Numbered from the stretch's first letter, positions 41,218 to 57,235 are shown. The stretch: DNA of 64,000 nucleotides from an uncultured Candidatus Saccharibacteria bacterium (GCA_964426735.1 CAYRRP010000003.1:13378-77377), one strand, 5' to 3'. The notes: generated by a model not told the origin, from the letters alone. Numbers and translations: made by a program.

Positions 41218-41345
41218 GAGTAAGGTCGCGTATAAATTTTGGGAAATGTTCGTAGACGTACTTGTCGTACGGCGAAGAATATTTTCCAAAATTTAGACGA
41301 TGAGATTGCTCAATTTTGGGACTTTTAGTAGGGTCGCGGTATACT
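41218..41345 (-). repeat. terminator-module repeat family F, copy F1 (AGGTCGCGTATAAA - long hairpin with GACGTAC..GTACG core - TTTAGACGATGAGATTGC...GGTCGCGGTATAC)
   Basis: Shares flanks and palindromic core with copies at 44465, 57118 and 53230. Confidence 0.4.
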
Positions 41346-41589
41346 TCCTAAGTTAAAAACTTAGGTGGGTGCCCGCACAATGGAATGTTGCAGCTTTCGC
41401 CCCGCGATTTCATTAAATATAAGGCTCCCTAAAAAATGGTTAGCTAGAAAATATACAGCAACCCTATGTGCATTATACTCTTATAAATAAGTTCCGCAAC
41501 TTAACTCTTAGGCATATAAACTTTCATAATCTAGATGCAGTTCTAGGAGAAAATTTGAAAATGCGAGAAGCCTTACTTTCGGTAAGGTG

Positions 41590-41637
41590 ACGAGAATTTT
41601 TAATTTTTCGACAACGAAATGCGCTAGATTTGGAAGT
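41590..41637 (-). repeat. partial F-family 3' module (GCGCTAGATTTGGAAG) abutting the ndk stop codon
   Basis: AAATTTGGAAG motif 2-8 nt before stop, as after tuf and secY. Confidence 0.35.
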
Positions 41638-42243
41638 TTACTCAAGAATTCCGTCTAAGTTGACGTCATACAATATTTCGTCCTGAACAAGACGATACGA
41701 TAGTATTTCCTCTGGTTTAAACCACAATGCAATTTCTTTTTCTGCTTCATCCACTGTACCTGATGCATGCACGAGATTTCGCACTGAGCGACTGTCTGTA
41801 TCTGAAAGTTCATATGAGTCAAGAACAAAATCCCCTCGGATTGTCCCTATATCTGAAGAAAGTGGTTCCGTTCCTCCGGTTATCTTTCGTACAATAGCAA
41901 CCGCATGAGCACCCTGCCATACAAGTGCAACAACCGGACCTGAAGACATGTATTCTTTAAGTCGACCGAGTATTCTTTGACTCGCTTCAAGAGGATCCTC
42001 TGTAGGTGGAGTTAATCCTTTTTCATGATAACTTTTAATTGTTTTTTCTCCTGCCTTACGTCTCCACTCTGGGTCAACCGTATAATGCTTTTCAACCATC
42101 TCTTCGGTCGGGATAAGCATTTTTGAACCCACAAGTTTGAGACCGATTCGTTCATATCGTTTGATAAGCTCTCCTATTAGACTACGCTGTACTCCATCTG
42201 GTTTTATTATCACCAACGTTTTTTCTTGTTTTGGATGCATCAT
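41638..42243 (-). CDS. ndk: nucleoside diphosphate kinase (long form)
   Basis: LVIIKPDGVQRSLIGELIKRYE..., GPVVALVWQG, HASGTVDEAEKEI (active-site His region). Confidence 0.85.
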   Translation of the reverse strand: MMHPKQEKTLVIIKPDGVQRSLIGELIKRYERIGLKLVGSKMLIPTEEMVEKHYTVDPEWRRKAGEKTIKSYHEKGLTPPTEDPLEASQRILGRLKEYMSSGPVVALVWQGAHAVAIVRKITGGTEPLSSDIGTIRGDFVLDSYELSDTDSRSVRNLVHASGTVDEAEKEIALWFKPEEILSYRLVQDEILYDVNLDGILE

Positions 42244-42292
42244 GAGGATTAAAGATTAAAGGATTAATGATTAAGGAATAATGCGATAAAAA
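42244..42292 (-). repeat. TTAATC-type tandem repeats upstream of ndk
   Basis: Minus-sense TTAATCATTAATCCTTTAATCTTTAATCCTC-ATG. Confidence 0.4.
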
Positions 42293-43060
42293 TTAACGAG
42301 TAAGGACAATAGGTTCACCTTCAGTGATTACGACAGTATGCTCTGCATGCGCTGCCCACGATCCATCTTTTGTTTTATACGTGTACCCATCTTTTGCAAG
42401 TACTATTTTATCTCCTCCGAGAGTAAGCATTGGCTCAATCGCAATCACCATACCTGGTACTAATTTCTCACCTTGCCCCTTTTGACCCTCATTGGGAACA
42501 TACGGGTCTTCATGTACTGTATAACCCACTCCGTGGCCCGCCAGGCTCTCAGGTAGGCCATACCCGAGTGAACGAGCGTATGAGCCGATTGCATAGCTTA
42601 TATCGCCAATATGAGCCCCACCACGAGCTTCTTTAATACCCCGAGCAAGCGCCTCTTCGGTGTGAGCGATGAGCTTTCGCTCCCTCTCACCCACTTCCCC
42701 TACACCAACCGTAATCGCACTATCTGTAATCATCCCTTTATGTGTAAGCCCAAGATCGAGAGTAACCACATCTCCTTCTTTTAGAATCTGAGCATCTTCG
42801 TTTGGAATACCATGCACAATCTCATCATTGATAGAAACACATAACGCTGCTGGATACGCACGTTTTGCACCTCGTGGTGTGTAATGTAAAAATGCACCTT
42901 TATCTCCACCCTCTTTAATGAGTTCCCGGGCTTTATCTTCAAGTGTTTGTGTACTCACTCCAGGGGCTACTATTTTTCTAAGCTCACGCAAAATGAAAGC
43001 ATGACGAGCGCCACCTTCTTTGAGGATTTCTATTTCTTCTGGTTTTTTGATTCGAATCAT
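42293..43060 (-). CDS. map: methionine aminopeptidase type I
   Basis: Pita-bread fold motifs: HGIP, D...D metal ligands (VVTLDLG, DSAITVGVG), HTEE, E at C-terminus. Confidence 0.9.
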   Translation of the reverse strand: MIRIKKPEEIEILKEGGARHAFILRELRKIVAPGVSTQTLEDKARELIKEGGDKGAFLHYTPRGAKRAYPAALCVSINDEIVHGIPNEDAQILKEGDVVTLDLGLTHKGMITDSAITVGVGEVGERERKLIAHTEEALARGIKEARGGAHIGDISYAIGSYARSLGYGLPESLAGHGVGYTVHEDPYVPNEGQKGQGEKLVPGMVIAIEPMLTLGGDKIVLAKDGYTYKTKDGSWAAHAEHTVVITEGEPIVLTR

Positions 43061-43116
43061 AAATATACGAATATACGAATGGGATGCTTACGAATAGATA
43101 CGAATACATTCAAACA
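43061..43116 (-). repeat. ATTCGTA / TACGAAT repeats upstream of map
   Basis: Minus-sense CATACGAATCAACGAATAG..TATTCGTATCTATTCGTAAGC..ATTCGTATATTCGTATATTT-ATG. Confidence 0.4.
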
Positions 43117-43719
43117 CTATTCGTTGATTCGTATGTTTAACTTCTCCATAATCTCTTTGTTTACCTCTTCGATCGTTTGTTCACCATTGATATCGAGCAC
43201 CCGGTATGCAGGGTTATCCCTGAAGTACTGGATTGCCGAAACAACCTCTGTATCAAACCACTCTAACCTTTTTTTGATTTCTGACAACTCATCATCAGAG
43301 CGCCCTCGCTCAAGAGCTCGTGCCATAGACCATTCATTTGATGTATTAATAATGATCACTGCAACATTTTTTCGTTTATAAAACTGTAGTGCAGTATCGA
43401 GAATCGGTGACTCGTACCGGCGTCGACAAAGACCGTCAAACACAAGATGCTCGTCTCCAGTGAAATTCTCCACCAGAAACGAAGTCCAGAGCCACACTGG
43501 CATAAATGGCGGCATAAGCCCTCCCGTCTCCATCACTTCTTTTGTCAGCCGAGCTGAATGATTATCTCGAACAATAAACTCACGAAGTTTTTGTCCAGTC
43601 TCGAGATACAAACACTCTCGCTGCGAATCATTTGTTTTCAAATACTCCATAAGAAGCTGTGCCTGGGTACCTTTCCCCGACCCCGCTCTCCCAAAAAGCA
43701 ATATGGTTTGTGGTGTCAT
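43117..43719 (-). CDS. adk: adenylate kinase
   Basis: P-loop GRAGSGKGTQA, LID-less short form, 200 aa. Two ACTTTCGAC direct repeats upstream. Confidence 0.9.
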   Translation of the reverse strand: MTPQTILLFGRAGSGKGTQAQLLMEYLKTNDSQRECLYLETGQKLREFIVRDNHSARLTKEVMETGGLMPPFMPVWLWTSFLVENFTGDEHLVFDGLCRRRYESPILDTALQFYKRKNVAVIIINTSNEWSMARALERGRSDDELSEIKKRLEWFDTEVVSAIQYFRDNPAYRVLDINGEQTIEEVNKEIMEKLNIRINE

Positions 43720-43761
43720 GAGTATAGTATAGTCGAAAGTGTAAAAAGTCGAAAGTTTGTA

Positions 43762-43806
43762 AGCTCAGGAAAATATAAAAAAGATCCTTCATTTTGTCCC
43801 ATACTA
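43762..43806. terminator. long hairpin AGATCCTTCATTTTGTCCCATAC-TAG-TATGGGGAACGAAGGATCT
   Basis: About 20-bp imperfect stem downstream of P4. Confidence 0.5.
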
Positions 43807-43841
43807 GTATGGGGAACGAAGGATCTTCTGATAGATCAACA

Positions 43842-44315
43842 CTAAACGATGCCCGTGAACAGACGCCAACCTGGAGCATAGAACATTGTAATATGACTTG
43901 GTATTTCTACCTTCCAACACTGCAGAATGTCGTCCCATGTGACTTCTGACCACCAATTATCTGCACAAAAGATATTGATGCCATACGTAGTTAAGGAACC
44001 AAGTTCCCCACAAGGCTGACGATTGATCAATTCCTTGATAGCACCGCACACTTCGGAAGGAGCGAGGTGTTTTATACCACCAGACACCTTGAATGCTTCT
44101 TGCATTTCATCAATCATACAGTGCTCGACTACGTTAAACTGATTGAGTTTAATCCGTGTACCGTTACGCAACGCCGTAGCCGTGCCATGCCGTTGTCTAA
44201 AATAATCCCCAACCCTCAACCCTAATCGGGTCTGATAATAGGTTTTAGGATCGTAATTCCCGGAGACGACAATTTCAATATCATCCCCTTTTTCCACTTT
44301 CCTGCTCATACTCAT
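43842..44315 (-). CDS. hypothetical protein P4 (157 aa) inserted between secY and adk
   Basis: Breaks the otherwise universal secY-adk adjacency. Elevated GC. Own TTGACA-16-TATAAT promoter and AAGGGG SD-like element. Confidence 0.4.
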   Translation of the reverse strand: MSMSRKVEKGDDIEIVVSGNYDPKTYYQTRLGLRVGDYFRQRHGTATALRNGTRIKLNQFNVVEHCMIDEMQEAFKVSGGIKHLAPSEVCGAIKELINRQPCGELGSLTTYGINIFCADNWWSEVTWDDILQCWKVEIPSHITMFYAPGWRLFTGIV

Positions 44316-44329
44316 AACTACCCCTTTTC

Positions 44330-44365
44330 AAACAGTTTCCACCTAGGATTATATAGTTATATTAT
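44330..44365 (-). promoter_or_regulatory. sigma70-like promoter for P4
   Basis: Minus-sense CTATTGACAGGTAATAATATAACTATATAATCC. Confidence 0.45.
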
Positions 44366-44389
44366 TACCTGTCAATAGTACCGATTACA

Positions 44390-44425
44390 CAAAATCCCCT
44401 TTTTTGAGGGGATTTTGTGTTTTGA
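44390..44425. terminator. terminator AAAATCCCC-TTTTTTGA-GGGGATTTTGTG
   Basis: Perfect 9-bp stem with flanking T/A runs. Confidence 0.6.
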
Positions 44426-44464
44426 AAACTAGATATTATGTGGTTACGAACTTTCACAATTTCT

Positions 44465-44576
44465 CCGAGGTCGCGGATAAAATATGGAAAGGGACCGGAG
44501 ACGTACTTACTGGTACGATGAGGACCATTTCCAGATTTTAGCCGATGAGATCGGTGAAATTTGGAAGTTCTGTTGT
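44465..44576 (-). repeat. terminator-module repeat family F, copy F2, directly after the secY stop
   Basis: GAGGTCGCGGATAAAATATGGAAAGGGACC-GGAGACGTACTTACTGGTACGATG-AGGACCATTTCCAGATTTTAGCCGATGAGATCGGTGAAATTTGGAAG. Confidence 0.45.
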
Positions 44577-45848
44577 TTAATACTCCCTAATAGAAACTTG
44601 AGCGTCGATTTTTTTGATAAGATCAATAACTACGGATACCGCAATCAAAAGCGCAGTACCTCCTACTGAAACCGCTGTAATACCAGTGAGTCCTCTGATT
44701 GCCAACGGAAGAATTGCAATCACGCCGAGGAACAATGCTCCGATAAGAGTCAGTCGAGTAAGAGTTTTCGCAATATGTTCAGAGGTTGGAGTACCTGGAC
44801 GTACACCCGGAATAAACGCTCCGTTTTTCTGAAGATTTTTTGAAATCTGATCAGGATCAAAGGTTACCGCTGTATAGAAGTATGTGAAGATAAATACAAG
44901 GAAGAAATATGCAATCGCATACACCCATGAGTTTGAGATAAATGTATTCAATGCAGTTGCAACATTTTTAATTGCAGGATAATCAACATTTGCAAGAAAC
45001 TGAGATATGATTTGTGGGAATAGCAATATTGCTGATCCAAAGATAATCGGCATAACACCAGCTTGATTCATACGAAGTGGAAGATATGTTGATGTACCAC
45101 CATATACTTTCATACCACGTACTTGTTTTGCATACGTGACCGGAATCGGACGCTCTGCTTCGGTGACCACTACCACAAGAACAACTACAACAATAGCGAT
45201 AATTGCAAAAAGTGCATAGAGTGGAAGTTGTACAGGATCAAATACATATGCAAGTTGAGAAATAGCTGTTGGAAGTTGTGACACGATACCTGCAAAAATG
45301 ATAAGTGATACACCATTTCCAATACCGTATTCAGTGATCAATTCACCAATCCACATCAGAAGCATCGATCCAGCAGTAATAACCGCGAGATTAACCATCA
45401 AATCAAACGGTGCCATTGACGCAATAACATTCTGAGATTCAAGAAGTTTAATCAAGCTAAATCCCTGAATCAGTGCAAAAGGTATTGCAAGCATACGTCC
45501 ATATTGGGCAAACTTTCGACGACCCGCATCCCCTTCTTCTTGATACATCTCTTTCAATCGTGAAGACATTACGGTAAGCAACTGCATAATGATAGATCCT
45601 GTAATATATGGACCCACACCAAGCATCACGATAGACAACTGTGAAAGACCACCTCCAGAGAACAAGTTGAGGAGTCCGAGAAATTCACTATTTGCAAACA
45701 AAGAAGTAAGTGCTGATTGATCTACACCAGGGATAGGGATAATAGCAAGAAAACGAAACACAACAAGTGCGCCAAGTGTGAACAAAATTCGTGTACGAAG
45801 AGCTTTGTCTTGTAATACGAGTCCGAATTTATAGAAAAAGTTTTTCAT
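44577..45848 (-). CDS. secY: preprotein translocase subunit SecY
   Basis: Ten-TM profile, conserved LGVGPYITGSIIMQLL and plug/hinge regions. Follows rplO. Confidence 0.9.
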   Translation of the reverse strand: MKNFFYKFGLVLQDKALRTRILFTLGALVVFRFLAIIPIPGVDQSALTSLFANSEFLGLLNLFSGGGLSQLSIVMLGVGPYITGSIIMQLLTVMSSRLKEMYQEEGDAGRRKFAQYGRMLAIPFALIQGFSLIKLLESQNVIASMAPFDLMVNLAVITAGSMLLMWIGELITEYGIGNGVSLIIFAGIVSQLPTAISQLAYVFDPVQLPLYALFAIIAIVVVVLVVVVTEAERPIPVTYAKQVRGMKVYGGTSTYLPLRMNQAGVMPIIFGSAILLFPQIISQFLANVDYPAIKNVATALNTFISNSWVYAIAYFFLVFIFTYFYTAVTFDPDQISKNLQKNGAFIPGVRPGTPTSEHIAKTLTRLTLIGALFLGVIAILPLAIRGLTGITAVSVGGTALLIAVSVVIDLIKKIDAQVSIREY

Positions 45849-45965
45849 GAAATTAATATACGAATATGTGAATCATACGAATTTACGAATGAATACGAAT
45901 GAATGCTTTTGAATGTGCTTTATTCGTAGCTATTCGTAAGTTTTTCATTCGTATATTTCGTATAT
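45849..45965 (-). repeat. TACGAAT and ATTCGTA repeats (both orientations, about 9 units) in rplO-secY spacer
   Basis: Minus-sense ...TACGAAATATACGAATGAAAAACTTACGAATAGCTACGAATAAAG...ATTCGTATTCATTCGTAAATTCGTATGATTCACATATTCGTATATTAATTTC-ATG. Confidence 0.4.
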
Positions 45966-46406
45966 CTATACTACCACTTTACCACCAATTGCCTCAATTT
46001 TAGCCTTGGCAGAAAGAGAAAGAGCGCAACCAGATACAGTAACCTTTTTAGTAATATCACCGGTTGAAAGAATCTTTACTTGAGGCTTCTTACCGTAGAT
46101 TGTTGTAATCACGCCTTTTGCAACAAGAGTTGCTGGAGTTACTTTGTCTCCATTTGAAAATGCATTTGAAATAGATTCAAGTGTAACAGGCACATATGCA
46201 CTCTGAATTGATGTGTTGATATTTACACCTCGTCCTCGAAGCTTAGGAACTCGTTTAATAAAATCTCGAAGTTCTGGTCTCTTTTTGTGACCAGCTCGTG
46301 CATTTTGACCTTTTGTTCCACGACCAGCAGTTTTAGCTTTAACACCCCCACGACCGATCTGTCGTGATTTCTTATTTTTATGTGTTCTCTTTAGTGTGTT
46401 TAACAT
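45966..46406 (-). CDS. rplO: 50S ribosomal protein L15
   Basis: Gly/Arg/Lys-rich N-terminus (GRGGVKAKTAGRGTKGQNARAG). Directly follows rpsE with no rpmD. Confidence 0.9.
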   Translation of the reverse strand: MLNTLKRTHKNKKSRQIGRGGVKAKTAGRGTKGQNARAGHKKRPELRDFIKRVPKLRGRGVNINTSIQSAYVPVTLESISNAFSNGDKVTPATLVAKGVITTIYGKKPQVKILSTGDITKKVTVSGCALSLSAKAKIEAIGGKVVV

Positions 46407-46423
46407 GGCAGTGTAATTAAGTA

Positions 46424-46975
46424 TTATTTAGCTCTGAGAGTTGAGAGTGCCTTGATAGCAGCCTTTGCATTGTTTACCTTATTTTTACTTCGTGAAAAAA
46501 GTTTTGAACCAACTTCCTTTACTCCTGCAAGCTCAAGTACAGTACGCACAGATGAACCCGCGAGAATTCCCTTTCCTGGCGCTCGCATAATAGATACCTG
46601 TGATCCAGAAAACTTTGCAAACACCTCATGAGGAATTGAGTGATTCTTTGTAAGAGGAATCTTAATCATATTTTTCTTTGCATCACGTGCAGCTTTGTCG
46701 ATTGCAAGTGGAGTATCAGTTGCTTTTCCTTGTCCTACACCTACCTTACCTTTTCGATCACCTACCACAACAGCAACAGAAAAACTAAATCGTCGTCCTC
46801 CAGTTACCACTCGGGTTACACGTCGAATACTGATGATTTTTTGATCAAATTCTGGTTTAACTCGAGGTTCTCGAGAATCTCTTCGATCACGATTTGGTTT
46901 TCGTGCACCTCGCTTATCTTTTGATCCAGCATCTGCCGGAGCAGCCTGTGTATGTGATTTAATTTCTTCTGTCAT
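46424..46975 (-). CDS. rpsE: 30S ribosomal protein S5
   Basis: S5 dsRBD and C-terminal domain (GRRFSFSVAVVVGDRKGKVGVGQGKA). N-terminal basic extension. Confidence 0.9.
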   Translation of the reverse strand: MTEEIKSHTQAAPADAGSKDKRGARKPNRDRRDSREPRVKPEFDQKIISIRRVTRVVTGGRRFSFSVAVVVGDRKGKVGVGQGKATDTPLAIDKAARDAKKNMIKIPLTKNHSIPHEVFAKFSGSQVSIMRAPGKGILAGSSVRTVLELAGVKEVGSKLFSRSKNKVNNAKAAIKALSTLRAK

Positions 46976-46987
46976 AGTAATTATAAA

Positions 46988-47338
46988 TTAAAATACGAGT
47001 CCCCCTTCACGAGCACCATCGGCAACAGCTTTAATATTTCCTGTGTAGATAAAACCGCCTCGGTCAAACACAACAGTTTCAATATGTTTTGCTTTTGCTT
47101 TTGTAGCAATCTCACGACCAACAGCAAACGCTTTTTCAGAAAGAGTCTTACCTTTTACTGTTTTCGTATGTGCAGACACAAGAGTTATCCCTTTTGAATC
47201 ATCGATCAGTTGTGCTCCCACATGCTGATTTGATTTAAATACCGCCAATCGAGGACGAGTTTCTGTACCAGAAACCTTCGCTCTGATTCGAAGCTTTCGT
47301 CGGATTCGTTGTGCTGTTTTGGAAATTTTTGTGTTCAT
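46988..47338 (-). CDS. rplR: 50S ribosomal protein L18
   Basis: [32 protein letters not shown]...[19 protein letters not shown]. Confidence 0.9.
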
Positions 47339-47418
47339 ATGATTAGTCGTTAGTCACAAGTCAGTAGTCTTTAGGAATGCATTTACTGTATTCTATTGAC
47401 TATTGACTGTTACCTATC
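47339..47418 (-). repeat. GACT/AGTC-rich intercistronic repeat family R, copy R1
   Basis: TTAGTCGTTAGTCACAAGTCAGTAGTCTTTAGGAATGCATTT... Related to copies at 47953, 49303, 49692, 52600, 55141. Confidence 0.45.
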
Positions 47419-47952
47419 TTATGCTGACTTTTTACCTTGCTTACGCTTGATAACCTCCCCTTCGTATCGAAGACCTTTGCCTTTATATGGCTCTGGCTTT
47501 TTCCAATCTCGAACCATTGCAGCAAATGCTCCTACCTCTTCTGTATTTATACCAGAAATAGTAATAACATTTTTCTCAGCTGTCACCTTTAGAGATGCAG
47601 GAATATCAATATGTACTGGATGTGAGAATCCAAGAGCAAGTACAAGCTGTGTACCTTTTACTTCAGATTTGTATCCAATACCTTCAAGAATAAGTTTTTT
47701 GACGAATGGTGTATGTACACCATTGATCATATTGGTGATATGTGACCCATATGTTCCCCACAATGCTCTGTTTGCAATTGTTTCTTTTACTGGTGCGAGT
47801 GTGATTGACTCTGGAGTAATAGTAAGTGCAACTTGGTCAGAAAAATTCTTTGAGAGTGACCCTTGTGGACCCTTTACAGTGAAAAGACCTGAAGTAAATG
47901 TAACTTCTGTTCCCTTCGGTATGGTAATTATTTTTTTTCCTATACGTGACAT
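47419..47952 (-). CDS. rplF: 50S ribosomal protein L6
   Basis: MSRIGKKIITIPKGTEVTFT... two L6 domains. Confidence 0.9.
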   Translation of the reverse strand: MSRIGKKIITIPKGTEVTFTSGLFTVKGPQGSLSKNFSDQVALTITPESITLAPVKETIANRALWGTYGSHITNMINGVHTPFVKKLILEGIGYKSEVKGTQLVLALGFSHPVHIDIPASLKVTAEKNVITISGINTEEVGAFAAMVRDWKKPEPYKGKGLRYEGEVIKRKQGKKSA

Positions 47953-50419: not shown

Positions 50420-50425
50420 ACTATT

Positions 50426-50601: not shown

Positions 50602-50611
50602 AAACTCTGTA

Positions 50612-51028: not shown

Positions 51029-51038
51029 ATACGTTTAG

Positions 51039-51695
51039 TTATTTAGCAAAGATTTCTCCCTTATATATCCACACTTTGATACCAATCGCTCCGTATGGAA
51101 GACGTGCAGGATATGCTGCATAGTCTACATCAGCTCGAAGAGTTTGAAGTGGAATTCGACCTTTTTTCATCTTTTCCTGTCGTGCCATAGAGGCCCCTCC
51201 AAGACGACCTGAAAGTTCGATTTTAACTCCAAGCACATCTCGGTTAGCCATTACCTTTTCGATAATCTGCTTCCCTACTCGTCGGAAAGGCATACGTTTC
51301 TCAAGACCTTCTGCAATCATGTGTGCCACGATTGTTGCATTTGTTTCTGGAGATTTTACTTCTTTGATGTCGATTTTTACTTCACCACCTGATACAAGGT
51401 TTTTCTTAGCCATGAATGCCAAAATCTCATCTCGAAGTTTTGTAGCACCTTCACCTGATCGTCCGATGATAGCACCTGGTCGTGAAGTTTCAATCATAAT
51501 TCGAAGTGCTTTTTCACTTCGTTCCATTTGAATGTCAGCCACATACTGACCTCGCATTTTCTTTTCAAGAAATTCGCGAATAAGCACATCACTCTTCAAG
51601 AACTCCTTGAATTTACTTTTCACGCCAAACCATCGAGATTTCCAATCTCTGATGATTCCAAGTCTATGTGAATATGGGTGTACTGTGTGTGACAT
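51039..51695 (-). CDS. rpsC: 30S ribosomal protein S3
   Basis: KH domain and C-terminal domain: GIIRDWKSRWF...GVKIELSGRLGGA. Confidence 0.9.
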   Translation of the reverse strand: MSHTVHPYSHRLGIIRDWKSRWFGVKSKFKEFLKSDVLIREFLEKKMRGQYVADIQMERSEKALRIMIETSRPGAIIGRSGEGATKLRDEILAFMAKKNLVSGGEVKIDIKEVKSPETNATIVAHMIAEGLEKRMPFRRVGKQIIEKVMANRDVLGVKIELSGRLGGASMARQEKMKKGRIPLQTLRADVDYAAYPARLPYGAIGIKVWIYKGEIFAK

Positions 51696-51696
51696 A

Positions 51697-52137
51697 TTAT
51701 TCGTTTGTTTTTACAGTTTTTGTTGTTTTCTTTTTTGTAACCTTCTTTTCTGCAACAACTTCTGCCTTCTCTTCCATAACAACCTTAGTCTTCTTTGCTT
51801 TCGGAAGAACTTCCTCAAGTGTAATAGAAATCATACTTGTTCGCTTTCGGATAGGGTGAGCTGAACCACGCGCTGCAGGCATTCGTCGGTAAAGAGTCTT
51901 ACCACTGTTTACTTCCACAGTTTTTACTACCAAGTTTTCAGTAGGCATTGATTGTGCTTTTGCGTTTGCAAGAGCCGATTCGATGAGTTTCTTAATAGGG
52001 TCAGATGCTCGTTTTTCTGTAAACTGCATTGAAAGAATAGCATCTGCTACTTTTTTACCACGTACGAGATCAGCAACTACACGAACTTTTCGTGGAGACT
52101 GTCGAAGATTTGAAAGTGTAGCGGATGCTTTTGCCAT
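51697..52137 (-). CDS. rplV: 50S ribosomal protein L22
   Basis: MAKASATLSNLRQSPRKVRVVADLVRGKKVADAILSMQF. Lys-rich C-terminal extension. Confidence 0.9.
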   Translation of the reverse strand: MAKASATLSNLRQSPRKVRVVADLVRGKKVADAILSMQFTEKRASDPIKKLIESALANAKAQSMPTENLVVKTVEVNSGKTLYRRMPAARGSAHPIRKRTSMISITLEEVLPKAKKTKVVMEEKAEVVAEKKVTKKKTTKTVKTNE

Positions 52138-52146
52138 AATATTAAA

Positions 52147-52491
52147 TTATTTTTTCTTAGCGTCAGGAGCTGCTTTAGATGCTTTTGCAGCAGCAATTTC
52201 AGACTCTTTCTTTTTAATTTCGAGCTCTTTCTGCATCTTACCTCCGTGTTTAAGGAATTTCTTTGTAGGAGAAAATTCGCCCAATCGGTGCCCTACCATA
52301 TCTTCAGTAACCAATACTTCAATATGAGTTTTACCGTTGTGTACGCCAAAGTTGAAGCCTACCATTTCAGGAGAGATAACACATGCTCGTGACCAAGTCT
52401 TAATAACCCCAGTTTCAATAGGTTTTTTACCCTCAATCTTTTTGAGAACTCGTGGGTCTACATATGGTCCTTTGTGTGATGATCGTGTCAT
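52147..52491 (-). CDS. rpsS: 30S ribosomal protein S19
   Basis: [18 protein letters not shown]...[18 protein letters not shown]. Basic C-terminal extension. Confidence 0.9.
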
Positions 52492-52814
52492 GAATTGATT
52501 AAAAAAATACTCTTTTTTGTAAGAGGTAGTAAAACCTTAAACAAAAACTAGATGTAAGAGAAAAACTCTCACGTGCGCTCTATACTATACAAAATGAGGC
52601 AATATGTCAAACGTTTAGTAAGCAGTCACAAGTCAATAGTCTGCAGTATAAAAACTGAAATCCTAAAAAGGAGAAAACGGTCAATAATATGACAATTCTA
52701 CGTAATACTGCAGGAATATAACAAAATCCGCCCCCTTCGAGGCAGATTTAGGTGTAATTTGAAGTAAAAATAAGAGCGACCTTTCCCCTCTGGGAACTGC
52801 CGCTCTCATCGACA

Positions 52815-53141
52815 CTAGCGATTAGTTCTGGTATTAATACCCAATTCTTCGTACATTGAAGCCAAGCAATCCATATTTCTTCCATAATCTGGGTCGCCGC
52901 AGATTTCTGGATGTTGATACGAATAATGCTTTTCGTACTGTTTATCGAGGATGTTGAGAGCTTCTTCAAGCTTACCACCCTCTTGAGCAAAAACACAAAG
53001 ACTGCCGATTGCAACTTGGCCTTTAAAGCAAAATTTGTCGACGAGTATCTCCACTCTCCCGATACATTCCGCAGGAATCTTGCCTCGTAAAAACGCCTGC
53101 ATTCTGACATCTAGATTTGAAAGCGTTGTTATTGTGTCCAT
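52815..53141 (-). CDS. hypothetical protein P5 (108 aa) inserted between rplB and rpsS
   Basis: Interrupts conserved rplB-rpsS adjacency. Elevated GC. Upstream terminator hairpin, TTGACA-type promoter and AGGAGG 4 nt before ATG. Confidence 0.4.
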   Translation of the reverse strand: MDTITTLSNLDVRMQAFLRGKIPAECIGRVEILVDKFCFKGQVAIGSLCVFAQEGGKLEEALNILDKQYEKHYSYQHPEICGDPDYGRNMDCLASMYEELGINTRTNR

Positions 53142-53145
53142 TGGA

Positions 53146-53215
53146 CCTCCTTTTACACCTTATAATACTGATTCAAAATGTCAAACAAAAAACACCCTTT
53201 CGGGTACTTTTTGTT
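53146..53215 (-). promoter_or_regulatory. terminator hairpin, promoter and SD for P5
   Basis: Minus-sense AAAAAGTACCCGAAAGGGTGTTTTTTGTTTGACATTTTGAATCAGTATTATAAGGTGTAAAAGGAGGTCCA-ATG. Confidence 0.45.
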
Positions 53216-53229
53216 AAAACCAATTAAAT

Positions 53230-53290
53230 TGCTTCAGATGCTAGGCGGACGAGGGATTTGGGTCGAGACGTACTGAACGTACGGCGAGAA
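53230..53290 (-). repeat. F-family hairpin core (GGGATTTGGGTCGAGACGTACTGAACGTACGGCGAGAATCAAATCC) downstream of rplB
   Basis: Same GACGTAC...GTACGGCG palindromic core as F1 and F2, in a 7-bp outer stem. Confidence 0.35.
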
Positions 53291-53337
53291 TCAAATCCTG
53301 AAGTCCAACAACGCAGATGGAGTAATTTTATTGTGTT

Positions 53338-54180
53338 TTACTTTCGCTTGCCTACTTTACGGCGGGAAACTATGTGCTTATTAGAATATTTCTTAGGAGT
53401 TCGAGTCTTCTGTCCCTTACCTGTCGGTCGTCCGTATACAGACACTGCTCGACGTCGTCCTCGGCCCTGTCGGCCTTCTCCACCTCCGTATGGGTGGTCT
53501 ACTGGGTTCTGAGCTGTACCTCGCACTGTTGGTCGGATACCGAGCCATCGTGAACGTCCTGCTTTACCGAGGTTTACAAGTCGATTTTCATCGTTTGCTA
53601 CTTCACCTACTGTAGCGTATGCAGTATCTTTTACTTTTCGCACTTCAGATGAAGGCATTTTGAGATCTACATATCCTGCGTCTTTAGCGATAAGTTCAAT
53701 GTAACTTCCTCCAGATCGAGCAAGCTTTGCTCCTCCTTGTGGTTTTACTTCTACGTTATAGATAAATGTACCAATAGTAATATCTTTAAGTGGTAGTCGG
53801 TTTCCAGTCTTTACTTCTGCGTTTGGAGCAGTGATGTATGTATCCCCCACTTTTGCACCCTTAGGAAGAAGAATGTATCGCTTCTCACCATCTTTGTATA
53901 CTGCAAGACCGATAAATCCTGATCGGTTTGGATCGTACTCTACAGTTTTTACTGTGTATGGAATATTGATTTTGTTGTACACGAAATCAATTTCTCGGAA
54001 GAGTCGCTTGTGTCCTGCTCCCTTGTGACGGGTAGTAATCACACCCTGGTTGTTTCGCCCTACTGATCGTTTGAAACCTCGTGTGAGTGACTTTACAGGC
54101 TTTGCGGTAGTCAAAACTGCACCGTAGTTGATCGATGTCATGTTTCGACGTGATGGGGTTGTTGGTTGGTATCGTTTCAT
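53338..54180 (-). CDS. rplB: 50S ribosomal protein L2
   Basis: KRYQPTTPSRR...GRNN.G.IT.RH.GGGHKR. C-terminal GGGEG..GRG. Confidence 0.9.
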   Translation of the reverse strand: MKRYQPTTPSRRNMTSINYGAVLTTAKPVKSLTRGFKRSVGRNNQGVITTRHKGAGHKRLFREIDFVYNKINIPYTVKTVEYDPNRSGFIGLAVYKDGEKRYILLPKGAKVGDTYITAPNAEVKTGNRLPLKDITIGTFIYNVEVKPQGGAKLARSGGSYIELIAKDAGYVDLKMPSSEVRKVKDTAYATVGEVANDENRLVNLGKAGRSRWLGIRPTVRGTAQNPVDHPYGGGEGRQGRGRRRAVSVYGRPTGKGQKTRTPKKYSNKHIVSRRKVGKRK

Positions 54181-54190
54181 ATTATTGATA

Positions 54191-54472
54191 TTACATTACC
54201 TCAATAGTTTGACCTTTCTTAAGGTATACGTACGCCTTTTTGATACCTTTTTTAAAACCTACTTTTCCTCGTACAAATACTTTTTTCTGAGGATTTGTTA
54301 CGGTTGTAACTTTTACTGGAGATACTTTGTAGATTTCTTTTACTGCTTTGATCACATCTGTCTTTGTTGCGTGTTTTGGAATCTCAAATGCGTACACTGA
54401 AGATTCTGACTTAAGCGCAGCTTTTTCTGTGATACGTGGTCGCAATAATACTGTTTTAAGATCTGCTTTCAT
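54191..54472 (-). CDS. rplW: 50S ribosomal protein L23
   Basis: LLRPRITEKA...YAFEIPKHATKTDVIKAVKEIYKV. Confidence 0.9.
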   Translation of the reverse strand: MKADLKTVLLRPRITEKAALKSESSVYAFEIPKHATKTDVIKAVKEIYKVSPVKVTTVTNPQKKVFVRGKVGFKKGIKKAYVYLKKGQTIEVM

Positions 54473-54477
54473 GATAG

Positions 54478-55140
54478 TTATGCAAGTTTAGAAGTAACTG
54501 TTGAAAGAGACTCGTTTGGATTCTCGATAACAACATACTTATATTTCATCAAATCGACAGGGTTGATGTTTCGGATTTCATCCACTTCAACATTGCTGAA
54601 GTTACCAAAGCTTTTCTTTGTAGTTACACTGTCTTTTGAAAGTGCGATCCATGCTGAGTTTTTCTTTTTTGAAAGGATATCAGTAAAACCTGTGATTTTT
54701 GAGAAAGATGAAAGAGTTCCTTTTGCGTCTTTTGCTTTTGGAGCAGAGAAATTCAAAGAATCTACGAAAAGGATGTGTCCTTTCTTAAATTTAGCTGAAA
54801 GGATAGTATACAAAGCTTTTGCTTTCATTTTCTTATTTACCTTTCGAGTATAGTCTTTTTCATTTCGTGGGCCATGAGTAACACCTCCACCTACCCAGAT
54901 AGGAGATCGAGTTGATCCATGTCGTGCACGCCCTGTTCCCTTTTGTTTCCAAGGTTTCTTTCCACCTCCAGATACTTCACCTCGGTTTTTAGTGTGAGCA
55001 ACAGGTGTTCGAGCACTTGATTCCATTGATACAACAACTTGGTGAACCAAGTCAGCATTCCATTTAAGACCAAACACGCTCTCTGGGAGAGTTATTGTTC
55101 CTGCTGTTTTACCTGTTTGTGTGTAAATATTTGCTTCCAT
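54478..55140 (-). CDS. rplD: 50S ribosomal protein L4
   Basis: GGGKKPWKQKGTGRARHGSTRSPIWVGGGVTHGP. Confidence 0.9.
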   Translation of the reverse strand: MEANIYTQTGKTAGTITLPESVFGLKWNADLVHQVVVSMESSARTPVAHTKNRGEVSGGGKKPWKQKGTGRARHGSTRSPIWVGGGVTHGPRNEKDYTRKVNKKMKAKALYTILSAKFKKGHILFVDSLNFSAPKAKDAKGTLSSFSKITGFTDILSKKKNSAWIALSKDSVTTKKSFGNFSNVEVDEIRNINPVDLMKYKYVVIENPNESLSTVTSKLA

Positions 55141-55230
55141 GATTTTTAAATTTAGTCATTAAAGTCTATCAAGTCTTTCAAGTCCATAAAGTCGGGTGCA
55201 TTTGGCATCTAACTTGATGGACTTTTGACT
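55141..55230 (-). repeat. repeat family R, copy R6 (rplC-rplD spacer)
   Basis: TTTAGTCATTAAAGTCTATCAAGTCTTTCAAGTCCATAAAGTCGGG...GACTTTTGACTTTATGAACCTTTGACTTC. Confidence 0.4.
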
Positions 55231-55845
55231 TTATGAACCTTTGACTTCTACTAGTGTTCCTCGGCGTCCTGCTACAGCACCTCGAATAAAGATTTCTCCT
55301 GCTTCTACGTCAATACCTGCGATAGTAAGACCACCTGTAGTGATACGATCACCTCCAGTTCGTCCTGCCATTCGTTTTCCTTTTGCTACACGTCCTCCGT
55401 CTCGTCCTCCACCTCCAAGAGATCCTGGCTCTCGCTCTGAGTGTTTCTGTCCGTGTGATCGAGGTCCTCCGTGGAAACCATGTCGCTTAACACCTCCCTG
55501 GAAACCTTTTCCTTTTGAGATAGAAGATACGGTTACACCGTCTCCTGCTGAAAATGTTGAGATATCGATAATATCCCCTACTTTGTATTCACCTCCTTCA
55601 ATTCGGAACTCTTTGATGTGAGCAAATGAACCAAGTTCTTTTACATGACCTTTTACTGCCTTTGAGATGTTCTTTGGGTTTCGAGAACCAAAACCAACCT
55701 GTACAGCAGTATAACCATCTTTTGAAAGATTCTTAACCTGAGTGATTACATTAGGACTTGTTTTGATAACAGTCACCGGATGCACTACGCCCGCGTCGTC
55801 GAAGATTTGGGTCATATTCTGTTTTGTTCCGAGGATGAATTTCAT
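55231..55845 (-). CDS. rplC: 50S ribosomal protein L3
   Basis: Likely start MKFILGTKQNMTQIFDD. FSAGDGVTVSSISKGKGFQGGVKRHGF. ORF-track start 55920 is an extension. Confidence 0.9.
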   Translation of the reverse strand: MKFILGTKQNMTQIFDDAGVVHPVTVIKTSPNVITQVKNLSKDGYTAVQVGFGSRNPKNISKAVKGHVKELGSFAHIKEFRIEGGEYKVGDIIDISTFSAGDGVTVSSISKGKGFQGGVKRHGFHGGPRSHGQKHSEREPGSLGGGGRDGGRVAKGKRMAGRTGGDRITTGGLTIAGIDVEAGEIFIRGAVAGRRGTLVEVKGS

Positions 55846-56041
55846 ATGATTATTATATTGATTTTGAAGACATTTTTCGGACAGTAATGAGAAAAGGTTT
55901 TTCTCAACATTGCCCATCACTAGTCCTCATAAAAAATAGCCTAAATGGCGATTTGGCAATACTAGCAGATAATGATTTTTATTTCAAGGGGTATAGATAC
56001 AAAAAGAGGTTTGCAAAAGCAAACCTCTCCGAAGCAGACTT

Positions 56042-56311
56042 TCACTCTGTAATAGGACAATTTTGCCCCGTCAGGTACCCACCTCCAAGCAACCATCCGG
56101 TAGGACCAAGCTCCACTATACCAGTACAGACGCACCCTTGGTTTTGACACGTACCTACATGAGTACCGACGTCAAGTCGAAACTCATTAGGAATTACTAC
56201 CCAGGCACCAATTTGGTGCCCAAGTCGAGCAGAAGCATCTTCTACTCTTTTACGACGTCTTTCATCGTCTGGATTTAAAACCATTTTTTCCAAACAGCCT
56301 CCTATACTCAT
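56042..56311 (-). CDS. small Cys-rich hypothetical protein P6 (80-89 aa) inserted between rpsJ and rplC
   Basis: Breaks the rpsJ-rplC adjacency. GC-rich. AGGAGG lies inside the first 6 codons, 13 nt before an internal ATG (MVLNPDD). Motif CQNQGCVCTG. Flanked by terminator hairpins. Confidence 0.35.
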   Translation of the reverse strand: MSIGGCLEKMVLNPDDERRRKRVEDASARLGHQIGAWVVIPNEFRLDVGTHVGTCQNQGCVCTGIVELGPTGWLLGGGYLTGQNCPITE

Positions 56312-56372
56312 ATAAGCACATATTTATATATTTGAAAACAAAAACCACCCTTTCGGGTAGTTTTTGTGTATA

Positions 56373-56756
56373 TTAGATGATTTTTACATCAATATTAACA
56401 CCAGATGGTAGAGAGAGATTTGTGAGTGATTCCATAATCTTTGGGGTCGGATTAAGGATATCAATCAATCGCTTATGAGTTCTCATTTCAAACTGCTCTC
56501 GAGCGTTTTTATACACAAACGAAGCTCGGTTTACTGTGTATTTCTTGATCTCAGTTGGAAGTGGGATTGGACCCAAAACCTTTGCATCGTATCGAAGAGC
56601 AGTATCCATGATCTGTCGTACTGAGATATCGAGTACTTTGTACTCATATGCTCGTACTCGGATTCGCAATTTAGAAATTGCATCCTCTTTTGCAGCTTTT
56701 TTAGGAGCCTTTTTTGTTGTTGTTTCTTTCGTTGCCATTACGGAGTAGCTTACCAA
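56373..56756 (-). CDS. rpsJ: 30S ribosomal protein S10
   Basis: RIRVRAYEYKVLD...PIPLPT..KKYTVNRASFVYKNAREQFEMRTHKRLIDI. Confidence 0.9.
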   Translation of the reverse strand: MVSYSVMATKETTTKKAPKKAAKEDAISKLRIRVRAYEYKVLDISVRQIMDTALRYDAKVLGPIPLPTEIKKYTVNRASFVYKNAREQFEMRTHKRLIDILNPTPKIMESLTNLSLPSGVNIDVKII

Positions 56757-56774
56757 ACAATTAAACTATTGGCA

Positions 56775-56815
56775 AGTAAGCGAAAACCCGCACGAAGACA
56801 AAGTCTTCGTGCGGG
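56775..56815. terminator. terminator CACCCGCACGAAGAC-TTTG-TCTTCGTGCGGGTTTTCG
   Basis: 15-bp stem between P7 and rpsJ. Confidence 0.5.
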
Positions 56816-56820
56816 TGACT

Positions 56821-57010
56821 TTAAAGAGGTGTTTTGAGTCTTTCTGTGTACTCCTTAAGGGCAGCATCCGCAACCCCAGCAGCAACACTCGCAACATCTT
56901 CAGGGTACACATACCGCTGTCCTAAGGGACGACTCAAGTTACTGTTGCTCAACACAGCACACAGAACCCGAAGCCAAATCTCTGACCCTTCTTGAGTATG
57001 AATCGACATA
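56821..57010 (-). CDS. small hypothetical protein P7 (63 aa from MSIHTQEG) between tuf and rpsJ
   Basis: Own TTGACA-16-TATATT promoter and AGGAG 8 nt before ATG. Elevated GC. Confidence 0.4.
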
Positions 57011-57014
57011 TTTT

Positions 57015-57085
57015 TTCTCCTCTTTTGAATATACAATATTTGCATTTTATGTCAACAAAAAACCACCCGAAGATGGTTTTTTGTT
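57015..57085 (-). promoter_or_regulatory. terminator hairpin, promoter and SD for P7
   Basis: Minus-sense CAAAAAACCATCTTCGGGTGGTTTTTTGTTGACATAAAATGCAAATATTGTATATTCAAAAGAGGAGAAAAAAT-ATG. Confidence 0.45.
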
Positions 57086-57117
57086 TGACACTACGAAAGT
57101 TAAGAATCGGTTTCAAA

Positions 57118-57235
57118 TTTGAGACAAGGTCGCGGATAAAGCAAAAACCAATTCCGGAGGTGTACATGTGGTACATTGACGGAATTGGTTTTTGTCTTTA
57201 GCCGATGAGATTGGCCAAATTTGGAAGCGCTGTGG
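57118..57235 (-). repeat. terminator-module repeat family F, copy F3, directly after the tuf stop
   Basis: AAGGTCGCGGATAAAGCAAAAACCAATTCCG-GAGGTGTACATGTGGTACATTGAC-GGAATTGGTTTTTGTCTTTAGCCGATGAGATTGGCCAAATTTGGAAG. 15-bp outer stem with compensatory differences versus F1 and F2. Confidence 0.45.

Follow-up and report, generated by a model that had tools for sequence, protein, structure and literature searches.

What are the long hairpin repeats that follow tuf, secY, ndk and rplB in the 64,000-nt stretch of DNA analysed here (the window)? The first-pass annotation grouped five of them as family F and regarded them as conserved terminator modules, possibly mobile or recombinogenic, or recognised by a protein or RNase. 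Sequence comparisons identify family F as a real and previously undescribed palindromic repeat of about 125 bases in CPR genomes.

Copies in the window and their structure

The window contains three canonical type A copies (tuf, secY and 41.2 kb) and three type C-like copies (rplB, ndk and fusA), located as follows:

57108..57232, minus strand: type A element after tuf (tuf stop codon 57238-57236, spacer of 8 nt)
57211-57197 and 57140-57128, minus strand: core halves ATCTCATCGGCTAAA and TTTATCCGCGACC of the tuf element
44448..44572, minus strand: type A element after secY (secY stop codon 44579-44577, 7 nt to the first arm base)
41200..41330, minus strand: type A element at 41.2 kb, with a perfect 18-bp outer stem, adjoining no gene
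about 41346-41331, minus strand: truncated core remnant GTATACCGCGACC, preceding the 41.2-kb element
41515..41637, minus strand: diverged type C-like element after ndk, starting directly at the ndk stop codon (41640-41638)
53213..53334, minus strand: type C element after rplB (rplB stop codon 53340-53338), with edges taken from the empty site of a relative
62816..62933, minus strand: well-preserved type C element directly 3' of the fusA stop codon (62936-62934)

The search of the first 41 kb yielded no others. The description that had been given for all five annotated copies fits the three type A copies almost word for word, but the rplB and ndk copies, being type C, lack ATCTCATCGGCTAAA and TTTATCCGCGACC. 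The fusA copy is outside the annotated range of 41218-57235. The elements of tuf, secY, rplB and ndk immediately follow their genes, but the 41.2-kb element comes about 300 nt after ndk, with the ndk copy and the truncated remnant in between. The boundaries of the rplB element (TAAAAC / element / AAAAAG-terminator) have a 3-nt ambiguity caused by an AAC triplet.

The tuf element folds as RNA with a dG of -43.6 and a z value of -8.5 compared with shuffled sequence; the corresponding z values are -6.0 for the secY element and -9.4 for the 41.2-kb element. The diverged ndk element has a z value of -2.5 and is recognised by nhmmer with E = 1e-9.

Each copy forms a long, imperfect hairpin with about 50 paired positions, built up by variable outer arms (type A or B), a conserved core (F core or C core), an inner stem and an apical stem. 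The type A arms, CTTCCAnATTTGG and CAAATnTGAAAG, are conserved apart from their outermost bases, which covary, and they are common to type C, a sister type with similar arms and a different core. With the second arm type, B, included, the ends read TA[A/G]AAC...GTTTT[A] or GCTCGG...CCGAGC. The F core is nearly invariant and asymmetric, with the halves AATCTCATCGtCTAAAAT and ATTTTATaCGCGACCTT; this is partly an effect of the search pattern, in which the core was a requirement, and in the alignment of 116 copies the conservation extends past the bases fixed by the pattern. It goes well beyond the needs of a terminator, as the annotation had pointed out. The inner stem is hypervariable yet complementary and is capped by the small apical stem. 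The apical GACGTAC...GTACG palindrome that had been noted is present in the three canonical copies, but it is simply a covarying stem of 5 bp (CGTAC/GTACG in 44 copies, TGTAC/GTACA in 19, CTTAC/GTAAG in 7 and CATAC/GTATG in 7), and the double GTAC is found in 68 of the 116 copies. No longer element bounded by the arms, as an autonomous parent would be, was found. The Rfam covariance models gave no match at their gathering thresholds, only chance microRNA-like hairpin matches with E of about 1.

The observation that the outer stems differ in sequence and remain complementary holds for the whole alignment, and for the inner stems likewise. When 116 copies of 41 assemblies are compared, both partners have changed in 42 of the 53 pairs (773 cells). 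This level of covariation was reached in none of 500 shuffles, and the covariation score is 0.303 compared with at most 0.131 when the partners are slid. Pairing is kept through compensatory changes, such as an A-T to G-C double change in the tuf element among orthologous copies in relatives. Compensatory changes between orthologous copies could equally reflect a function of the RNA in the host.

The two strands do not fold equally well. In 117 of 119 copies the better fold belongs to the strand complementary to the mRNA, with a mean gain of 12.6 kcal/mol, and DNA energy parameters give the same direction of bias as the RNA folds. For example, the DNA folds of the tuf element are -37.8 on the plus strand and -29.3 on the minus strand, and those of the fusA element (117 nt, 62817-62933) are -23.6 and -18.1; the ndk element gives -41.1 on the plus strand versus -22.7 on the minus strand. 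Spacers without F display no such bias (63 versus 57). The fixed alignment columns contain 503 A·C cells versus 176 G·T cells, and much of the asymmetry comes from a few invariant positions, for instance the A·C in columns 32/110 of the alignment; such positions may represent loop bases without a partner and not wobble pairs. Within the variable inner stem, A·C outnumbers G·T by just about 2:1. It is the plus strand of the window that folds better, and this strand is taken as the leading-strand template because it has more C than G, the direction of replication being derived from GC skew only.

Insertion at stop codons and dispersal among genomes

Family F is an insertion that has been gained and replaced at precise points. 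The relative L118 has an exact empty site after rplB, where TAAAAC is followed directly by the AAAAAG-terminator. At the same nucleotide, type C is found in the window and in L119 and type A in L030, L035 and L052, and elements of both types precede the same AAAAAG(C/T)ACCC terminator start. After tuf, contigs with identical S10 have an element of type A, B or C ahead of one conserved terminator. Contig L137 carries an identical copy of the secY element and encodes an identical SecY. Orthologous operon spacers are empty and 10-15 nt long in some genomes and filled with F in others; many are empty or contain unrelated hairpins.

The 5' edge of F adjoins the stop codon in about 70-85% of the copies, and the distance from the end of the stop codon to the core is 18-28 nt (mode 21) in about 84 of 121 copies. 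No fixed distance was found on the 3' side. F has a single orientation and is positioned immediately 3' of a TAA/TAG motif with the 5' flank consensus TA[A/G]AAC, which usually is the stop codon of the gene itself, upstream of a pre-existing intrinsic terminator. The stop codons ahead of F are TAA (53), TAG (37) and TGA (4) compared with 571, 250 and 285 in the background, a strong depletion of TGA (p = 1e-7). The target is complementary to the 3' end of F, GTTTT[A], and the stop codon is therefore often pulled into the stem base. Target-site duplication, expected of MITEs derived from DDE transposons (a TA in Correia and IS630-type elements), was not seen: the empty and filled rplB sites give an ambiguity of just 1-3 nt, and no direct repeat is shared by the flanks of the type B copies that were compared. 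A tblastn search for Y1/RAYT-like transposases in about 0.9 Mb of flanking sequence and the window, with IS608 TnpA and Escherichia coli RAYT as queries, gave only chance-level matches, which is a weak test.

The copies are not confined to this region as a local duplication, since the F core recurs in at least 114 places in another 40 CPR assemblies. In total, 119 distinct copies come from 41 assemblies, of CPR type throughout except for two chance matches, and the best explanation is that F is endemic to Parcubacteria/Zambryskibacteria-type CPR genomes. The preceding genes are core genes, mostly highly expressed (EF-Tu, SecY, S7, S18, L2, L6, MreB and FtsZ-like), and the same genes bear an element in many genomes although the element type varies. 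A single inner-stem subfamily (at least 85% identical) is found after up to 11 gene families and occurs both with A arms and with B arms. Together with the empty site of the relative and the three types at tuf, this favours the mobile or recombinogenic alternative of the annotation. The copies of one assembly are diverse (mean pair identity 0.73), and 100 of the 119 copies have their nearest relative in another assembly. The age and diversity of the copies within single genomes differ from the pattern of an active REPIN population and fit with long-term retention under selection.

Possible host function, termination and gene capture

A rival reading is that of an RNA element in the 3' UTR, selected by the host as a shield of highly expressed mRNAs against 3' exonucleases or as a site for processing or binding (by RNase III or another protein reading the conserved internal loop), which would punctuate the long operons of translation genes into separately controlled units. 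A role as recognition site for a protein or an RNase is possible. The fixed orientation and position relative to the upstream stop codon, the recurrence on the same core and mostly highly expressed genes despite changes of type, and the core conservation beyond the search pattern are all in line with this, as are the age and diversity of the copies within genomes and the compensatory changes that keep their structure. However, the mRNA-sense strand is the one that folds worse, with invariant A·C mismatches, and the bias against TGA has no obvious reason at the RNA level. One relative has a working rplB site with no element, many orthologous spacers do without F, and the interchange of types A, B and C at one site argues against a specific sequence requirement of the host gene. 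A host-selected RNA element is considered rather unlikely.

The annotated role as intrinsic terminator of tuf, secY, ndk and rplB found no support. F has strong hairpins directly 3' of stop codons, and at the end of many type A copies stands GAAAGTTTT, a short run of T paired with the upstream AAAAC as in bidirectional terminators. Such hairpins downstream of genes, some with a short terminal T run, are a likeness to Rho-independent terminators and to terminator-like repeats such as SPRITE (mentioned in PMC10969869). Nevertheless, no copy has the pattern of a short GC-rich stem-loop followed by a T/U run; the stem base is AT-rich and the type B copies lack a T run. A scan of 40500-58500 gave 23 terminator-like sites, none of which is an F hairpin. 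Genuine terminators instead come after F, and four of the six window copies have a separate canonical one within about 0-40 nt downstream:

57055..57084, minus strand: canonical intrinsic terminator AAAAAACCATCTTCGGGTGGTTTTTT, downstream of the tuf element
44387..44420, minus strand: canonical terminator AAAATCCCCTCAAAAAAGGGGATTTTGTG, downstream of the secY element
44375-44348, minus strand: consensus promoter TTGACA-16-TATAAT, 3' of the secY terminator
53186..53212, minus strand: canonical terminator AAAAAGTACCCGAAAGGGTGTTTTTTG, immediately 3' of the rplB element
62752..62790, minus strand: canonical terminator AAAAAACAAGACTGACAGAAAATGTCAGTTTTGTTTTTTG, 3' of the fusA element

The same arrangement is seen at many loci in other genomes. 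The tuf terminator is kept in 10 of 10 related contigs regardless of element type, and the empty rplB site of the relative has a terminator with the same AAAAAGCACCC start and a different stem-loop. Some copies are even found within operons, with the next ribosomal-protein gene directly behind them. F itself is not a terminator, and it is quite improbable that termination of these genes explains the family.

A site for single-strand recombination, similar to the attC sites of integrons, could capture genes and would then mark the integration of small orphan genes in conserved operons. F does resemble attC in its location directly after the stop codon of an ORF, in the better fold of the bottom strand and in a structure conserved over sequence, with conserved boxes at the base and a variable terminal part. 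All six window copies, at five gene junctions, precede ORFs without a family match, and in a crude test the next ORF was non-conserved after 44 of 79 genes with F compared with 168 of 592 (odds ratio 3.2). Contigs that share an identical S10 or S19 are hypervariable in the tuf-rpsJ and rplB-rpsS slots. However, the orphan gene is located downstream of the terminator and does not adjoin F, the breakpoints of orphan insertion seem to be consistently away from F, and the orphan families reassort independently of element type. Element and orphan can also occur separately: the rplB-rpsS slot of L118 has an ORF (uncalled, seen by eye) behind a promoter-like sequence and an rplB stop codon without element, and an element without an orphan is found in L127, L030 and L137. 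The R''/R' consensus (RYYYAAC/GTTRRRY boxes), cassette arrays and an integrase are all absent, and F follows core housekeeping genes. Gene capture by an attC-like site is very improbable.

A protein-binding, restriction or methylation site in double-stranded DNA centred on the GTAC palindromes, suggested by the two apical GTAC sites in each canonical window copy, is hardly credible, given that the window shows no avoidance of GTAC (252 sites; observed/expected 0.85), that 48 of 116 copies (about 40%) have covarying stem variants in place of the double GTAC, and that covariation throughout F points to a single-strand structure and not to a duplex motif.

Relation to known elements and proposed mobility

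REPINs are REP doublets that form hairpins and are mobilised by RAYT transposases (Bertels & Rainey 2011, PMC3116915), and recognition of the target through complementarity to one element end has been proposed for them (PMC3116915). A RAYT is a Y1 HUH transposase, and its gene commonly has REPs on its flanks. F has the same general design as REPINs, with two conserved inverted halves and a less conserved spacer of about 55-70 nt in one long hairpin, in which compensatory changes are frequent. Both are extragenic, dispersed and non-coding without target duplication, and a single-strand intermediate is suspected for both. Unlike REPINs, the halves of F are only partly complementary because of the asymmetric core and are not small palindromes with a GTAG head; its copies are diverse (73% identity) and do not form a near-identical cloud round a master sequence; they strictly follow TAA/TAG stops in a strict orientation; and the hosts belong to CPR, not to Proteobacteria.

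ERIC elements are palindromic, co-transcribed and form RNA hairpins. F is comparable to them (ERIC/IRU of enterobacteria) and to the Correia elements of Neisseria (CREE) in being a palindrome of about 100-150 bp that is co-transcribed with its neighbours into RNA hairpins and whose ends can create outward promoters; Correia elements and F also share TA-containing targets. CREE are reported to be able to bind RNase III or to be cleaved by it (PMC2649163). F has no sequence similarity to either family. CREE duplicates its TA target and F does not. The terminal inverted repeats of CREE and ERIC are conserved, whereas the outermost stem of F covaries and its conservation is highest internally. Neither family has been described as having a stop-codon register or as avoiding TGA.

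F is also comparable to palindrome-associated elements derived from the IS200/IS605 family, which are single-strand elements with a Y1 transposase. IS608 inserts in a single orientation on the 3' side of a short specific motif, without target duplication and in a hairpin-dependent and strand-specific manner. In the same way F inserts 3' of TA[A/G]AAC in one orientation without duplication, with hairpin dependence and strand specificity. On the other hand, F folds better on the leading-strand template (judged from GC skew only), the opposite of the IS608 rule, under which the active strand lies on the lagging-strand template; F is one continuous hairpin of about 50 pairs, not two small subterminal hairpins; and no TnpA was seen in the flanks and window searched with the IS608 query, which is a weak test.

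Taken together, F is on balance probably a non-coding, structure-dependent insertion element, a palindromic interspersed repeat of REPIN/MITE-like kind that is endemic to CPR. The element would move as a folded single strand, with a putative enzyme reading the conserved core, and the strand that moves is probably the mRNA-complementary one of the DNA, whose fold is better by about 8-12 kcal/mol. Because F sits between stop codon and terminator, it would be transcribed into the 3' UTR as a weaker hairpin broken by A·C mismatches, where its effect might at most be to stabilise the mRNA or to have it processed. In some of the copies the 3' arm may provide a -35-like box to an outward promoter.

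A bolder and speculative reading, unlikely as it stands, is that F and its sister types represent a new kind of hairpin transposon. Such an element would home without duplication to the position 3' of TAA/TAG (TAAAAC-like), with its 3' end pairing with the target, it would travel as the folded bottom strand of the DNA, and it would be moved by a CPR enzyme that is not recognised as a transposase. If this is true, the arms, the core and the inner stem would be modules that are reshuffled by template switching between copies.

Copies, anatomy and distribution

Family F proved to be a true hairpin repeat, although not in a single form. The two conserved strings that the first-pass annotation ascribed to every copy after tuf, secY, ndk and rplB co-occur three times in the window, on the minus strand at 57.2, 44.5 and 41.3 kb. 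These type A stretches of about 125 nt each form a single long imperfect hairpin (z = -8.5, -6.0 and -9.4 versus shuffled sequence). The copies after rplB and ndk are true relatives, alike in general shape, arms and apex, but the two strings are absent from them and their core is a different one (type C). Other genomes have a further canonical form, type B. One more copy lay beyond the range first read:

62933-62816, minus strand: sixth copy, well-preserved type C, directly after fusA

A search of the window with nhmmer gave no copies beyond these six, so all six lie within the translation-gene cluster at 41-63 kb. The identities of tuf, rpsJ, secY, adk, map, ndk, rplB, rpsS, rplO and fusA were checked.

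Read in mRNA sense, the parts follow one another as stop codon, 0-8 nt, 5' outer arm (AACTTCCAnATTTGGCC in type A, GCTCGGGTCTTTTTCACG in type B), 5' core half (AATCTCATCG(T/G)CTAAAAT), an inner stem of about 20 pairs with nearly any sequence, a small internal loop (TCACC / GCCTC), an apical stem of 5 bp with its loop, 3' core half (ATTTTAT(A/C)CGCGACCTT) and 3' outer arm. Pairs were counted on the structure from per-sequence folds, and a first covariance model with only 11 pairs was set aside. The alignment of 116 copies has 53 drawable column pairs, 42 of which are changed on both sides (773 cells). This covariation was reached in none of 500 shuffles, and its score of 0.303 dropped to at most 0.131 once the partners were slid. 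The variable core base covaries as well, CGTC occurring with TACG, CGGC with TCCG and CGAC with TTCG.

A scan of one genome per species with the pattern TCATCGNCTAAA-N40-70-TTTATNCGCGAC matched at least 116 stretches. Two of these are chance matches; the others, at least 114 further copies in 40 other assemblies, show that the repeat is not restricted to this region. The assemblies are labelled Zambryskibacteria, Paceibacterota, Parcubacteria, Minisyncoccia or Patescibacteria and hold up to nine exact-pattern copies each among the matches listed. The pattern bases are invariant by construction because the search required them, but the core-adjoining bases AAT- and -CTT are at least 90% conserved although they lie outside it. 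About 20% additional, diverged copies were found at the same loci with nhmmer. No Rfam family matches F on either strand, nothing relevant was found in the literature on CPR repeats, MITEs and structured RNAs, and exact-protein look-ups with EF-Tu and Ndk found no contigs. A phage origin was rejected, as viral contigs had no matches. The plus strand contains CGATGAG, but a hammerhead or other ribozyme was also rejected because Rfam ribozyme hits are absent on both strands, and U4 and GAAA, which such a ribozyme requires, are missing from the core.

The window DNA is 80-88% identical to a Zambryskiibacteriota MAG (contigs L001 and L030) and to assembly CAZVIO01. Several F-bearing assemblies are labelled 'uncultured Saccharibacteria', and at least one of them (CAZVIO01, contig L035) has a ribosomal operon closely related to that of the window. 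Because that operon and the one of the Zambryskiibacteriota MAG are both up to 88% identical to the window, the label of CAZVIO01 (contigs L035, L010 and L131) looks wrong, and perhaps that of similar TPA records too.

Stop-codon register, insertion and folding strand

A same-strand ORF of at least 90 amino acids ends 18-28 nt (mode 21) 5' of the core in about 84 of 121 copies. The stop codon is thus at the edge of the 5' arm, and in most remaining copies the stop codon of a shorter ORF is found at the equivalent place. No comparable fixed distance to genes exists on the 3' side, which indicates that the orientation of F is set relative to the upstream gene. The upstream genes encode core proteins: S7, S18, L2, L6, L14, EF-Tu, SecY, MreB, FtsW, PBP, M23/LysM peptidases, DnaB and RRM proteins. 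The stop codons before F are TAA in 53 cases, TAG in 37 and TGA in four, compared with 571, 250 and 285 for other conserved ORFs at the same loci; TGA is thus rarer (p = 1e-7) and TAG commoner (p = 6e-4). The 5' flank consensus is TA(A/G)AAC, and where the real stop codon lies a few bases further upstream a second TAA or TAG is often found directly 5' of the arm. A K-turn, a C/D box and a read-through peptide were considered and rejected; the interval between stop codon and core does not keep a reading frame, so F is no extension of the coding sequence.

Comparison of related genomes shows how the element comes and goes. The rplN-rplX, rpsC-rplP, rplF-rplR and rplP-rpmC spacers are 10-15 nt long in some genomes, contain F in others and unrelated hairpin repeats in yet others. 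An empty site after rplB, GAAAG-TAA-AAC|AAAAAGCACCCC running into the terminator, is present in contig L118, whose S19 is identical to that of the window. At exactly this point type C is found in the window and in contig L119, and type A in contigs L030, L035 and L052, where it is followed by the same AAAAAG(C/T)ACCC terminator start. The junction is ambiguous by just 1-3 nt and target duplication is therefore absent. Duplication of a TA target is also rejected by the type B copies; many type A copies have a TAA...TTA appearance because the stem extends through the stop codon. At rplB the 3' end of both element types, GTTTT(A), complements the TAAAAC already present at the site.

After tuf, ten contigs with identical S10 have type A, B or C. 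One inner-stem subfamily (at least 85% identical) is found behind members of 11 gene families and is combined with A as well as B arms, and type A arms also surround other interiors, so the family is modular. Copies within one genome have a mean identity of 73%, and among the matches listed a copy usually has its nearest relative in a different genome. Together with a compensatory A-T to G-C change between orthologous copies downstream of tuf, this diversity means that the copies are old and structurally maintained, with no recent burst.

Of 119 copies, 117 fold better on the strand complementary to the mRNA, on average by 12.6 kcal/mol with RNA parameters; with DNA parameters the difference was 5.5-9 kcal/mol in the four window copies tested. 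Fixed alignment columns contain 503 A·C cells (G·U or G·T on the opposite strand) against 176 G·T cells, and a large share of the excess is due to three conserved positions, including an invariant one. Within the variable inner stem the alignment gives a ratio of about 2:1, and per-sequence folds give 196 G·U pairs antisense against 32 sense. Spacers without F have no such bias (63 versus 57), and the C-to-T bias expected on the leading (sense) strand is of opposite sign, so a general mutational bias was rejected as the cause, but other hairpin repeat families in the operon spacers of the window lean to the same strand. As C exceeds G throughout the plus strand of the window, the better-folding strand is presumed to be the leading-strand template. 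There is moderate evidence for selection of the structure on the bottom strand, or for selection of a weaker structure in the mRNA.

Neighbouring repeats and orphan genes

A second family of hairpin repeats occupies spc operon spacers on the minus strand (47339-47418, 47953-48034, 49303-49385, 49713-49771 and 52600-52660), after rplF, rpsH, rplX and rplN and upstream of rpsS. It has arms of AGTCA-like units around a AATGCATT centre, and its hairpins fold better on the plus strand. The units of relatives at these spacers are unrelated (ACGAAT, AAAGTC, GATTAAAG). A third family, of ACGAAT-unit hairpins, is found at 4767-4809, 43061-43116 and 45849-45965, for example after rplO and adk, and also in contigs L001 and L034.

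ORFs lying between conserved genes:

56824-57010: orphan ORF, 62-74 aa, between tuf and rpsJ
52815-53141: orphan ORF, 108 aa, between rplB and rpsS
43842-44315: orphan ORF, 157 aa, between secY and adk
58892-62692, minus strand: 1266-aa ORF between fusA and tuf, no NCBIfam match
58603-58890, minus strand: 95-aa ORF between fusA and tuf, no NCBIfam match

The first three each have their own strong promoter and terminator. Contigs with identical S10, S19 or SecY (L127-L137 and L118-L121) have other orphans or none in these slots, including ORFs of 62, 67, 76, 79, 84 and 153 aa and a reverse ORF of 208 aa, so at these points the most conserved operons contain hypervariable gene positions. The tuf gene normally lies directly 3' of fusA. 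At the fusA-tuf position the 95-aa ORF is kept in four relatives (contigs L030, L083, L021 and L086), and the 1266-aa ORF gave only partial tblastn matches (L030, L083, L110 and L021). In some copies of types A and B the 3' arm runs into a short conserved tail, (C/G)GATTCTT (57101-57107 in the window; type B in contigs L044, L077, L078, L091, L096 and L112), and the strain-specific orphan-gene insertion after tuf starts directly past it.

Between the two elements downstream of ndk lies a stretch of 190 nt (41331-41514, minus strand) with a promoter-like TTGCGG...TATAAT, a structured GC-rich part (GCGGGGCGAAAGCTGC...GCGGGCACCC), a hairpin of CCTAAG...CTTAGG and the truncated remnant of an F core (GTATACCGCGACC). 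It has no Rfam match and could be a small RNA or mere debris of another element. Nucleoside-diphosphate kinase models match ndk itself (41638-42243, minus strand, 201 aa) in two separate stretches, which suggests an insertion within the protein. A gene for a beta-CASP/metallo-beta-lactamase RNase (RNase J-like; 39396-40763, minus strand) lies just 3' of the transcription unit of the 41.2-kb element, and a tmRNA gene is at 34274-34685 on the plus strand. At 238-348, next to tRNA genes (166-239 and 398-468), a 37-nt unit occurs three times in tandem, with two identical copies.

Mechanism and rival explanations

F is a genuine and apparently undescribed family of palindromic insertion elements that is CPR-wide and has an unusual register to stop codons. 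Insertion is precise and oriented, 3' of a TA(A/G)AAC-like motif and without duplication; elements are replaced at the same site, are modular, maintain their pairing and are located between stop codon and terminator. The element would travel as a folded single strand with the asymmetric core as recognition feature. That so many insertions are at stop codons would reflect a TAR-containing target combined with selection, since in spacers of 10-40 nt the stop codon would be the sole TAR where insertion spares a downstream leader, promoter or terminator. In the mRNA, F would be a passenger hairpin that may stabilise the transcript or be processed.

REPINs have the closest architecture: their two halves are conserved and inverted, the hairpin spacer between them varies, and compensatory changes occur, but F has no master-sequence population. 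IS200/IS605 elements share the missing duplication, the strand specificity and the position, although compared with IS608 the folding strand of F is the 'wrong' one. Searches for a Y1/RAYT enzyme gave no matches in about 0.9 Mb of flanks and the window, a weak test with IS608 TnpA and E. coli RAYT sequences as queries. In function F comes closest to Correia and ERIC elements, co-transcribed palindromes that can create promoters. Correia elements can bind or be cut by RNase III, according to PMC2649163. F differs from Correia elements in that target duplication is absent.

A host function in the 3' UTR is unlikely but the serious rival, because F recurs behind the same highly expressed genes in copies that are old and conserved in structure. 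The mobile module, which the first-pass annotation had offered as one option, is favoured by the exact empty site after rplB in L118 and by the three element types at one tuf site.

The same annotation named the copies terminator modules, a reading that their place after the stop codon invites but that is improbable. A terminator pattern scan called no F hairpin, and after tuf, secY, rplB and fusA the order is stop codon, element and separate canonical terminator, an order that recurs in many other genomes. The terminator downstream of tuf, AAAAAACCACCnnnnGGTGGTTTTTTG, is kept in ten of ten related contigs regardless of the preceding element type. Two of the terminators in the window are followed by near-consensus promoters:

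57055-57028: TTGACA-16-TATATT, after the tuf terminator
44375-44348: TTGACA-16-TATAAT, after the secY terminator

Some copies lie within operons, a few tens of bases 5' of the next ribosomal-protein gene, and are often followed by an extended -10-like TGTGGTAAT about 17 nt past TTGnCn in the 3' arm, which is a resemblance to the consensus only. F is not a terminator module.

Gene capture of the attC kind is very doubtful; F resembles attC in strand specificity and position but has no attC boxes. The idea of F as a landing pad for orphan genes was weakened by a slot with an ORF but no element (L118), by elements without an orphan (contigs L127, L030 and L137) and by orphans that reassort independently of element type. 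That the apical GTAC palindrome is a DNA site for restriction or methylation is next to negligible, as it is simply the 5-bp apical stem, which in 40% of copies has another sequence (CTTAC/GTAAG, CATAC/GTATG or others), and the window shows no avoidance of GTAC.

CPR genomes are tiny, densely packed and usually described as repeat-poor, and the organisms cannot yet be grown alone. Nevertheless their most conserved operons (str, S10 and spc) are full of long hairpins that differ between close relatives, and the spacers adjoining F hold fast-changing orphan genes. For annotation, F hairpins should not be labelled terminators. The family is a handy marker for strain-level variation and a natural experiment on how a 125-nt 3'-UTR hairpin affects expression. 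Its chief interest is as a source of rapid variation within the most conserved operons and, through the invariant asymmetric core, as a concrete lead to a protein that may mobilise or recognise it.
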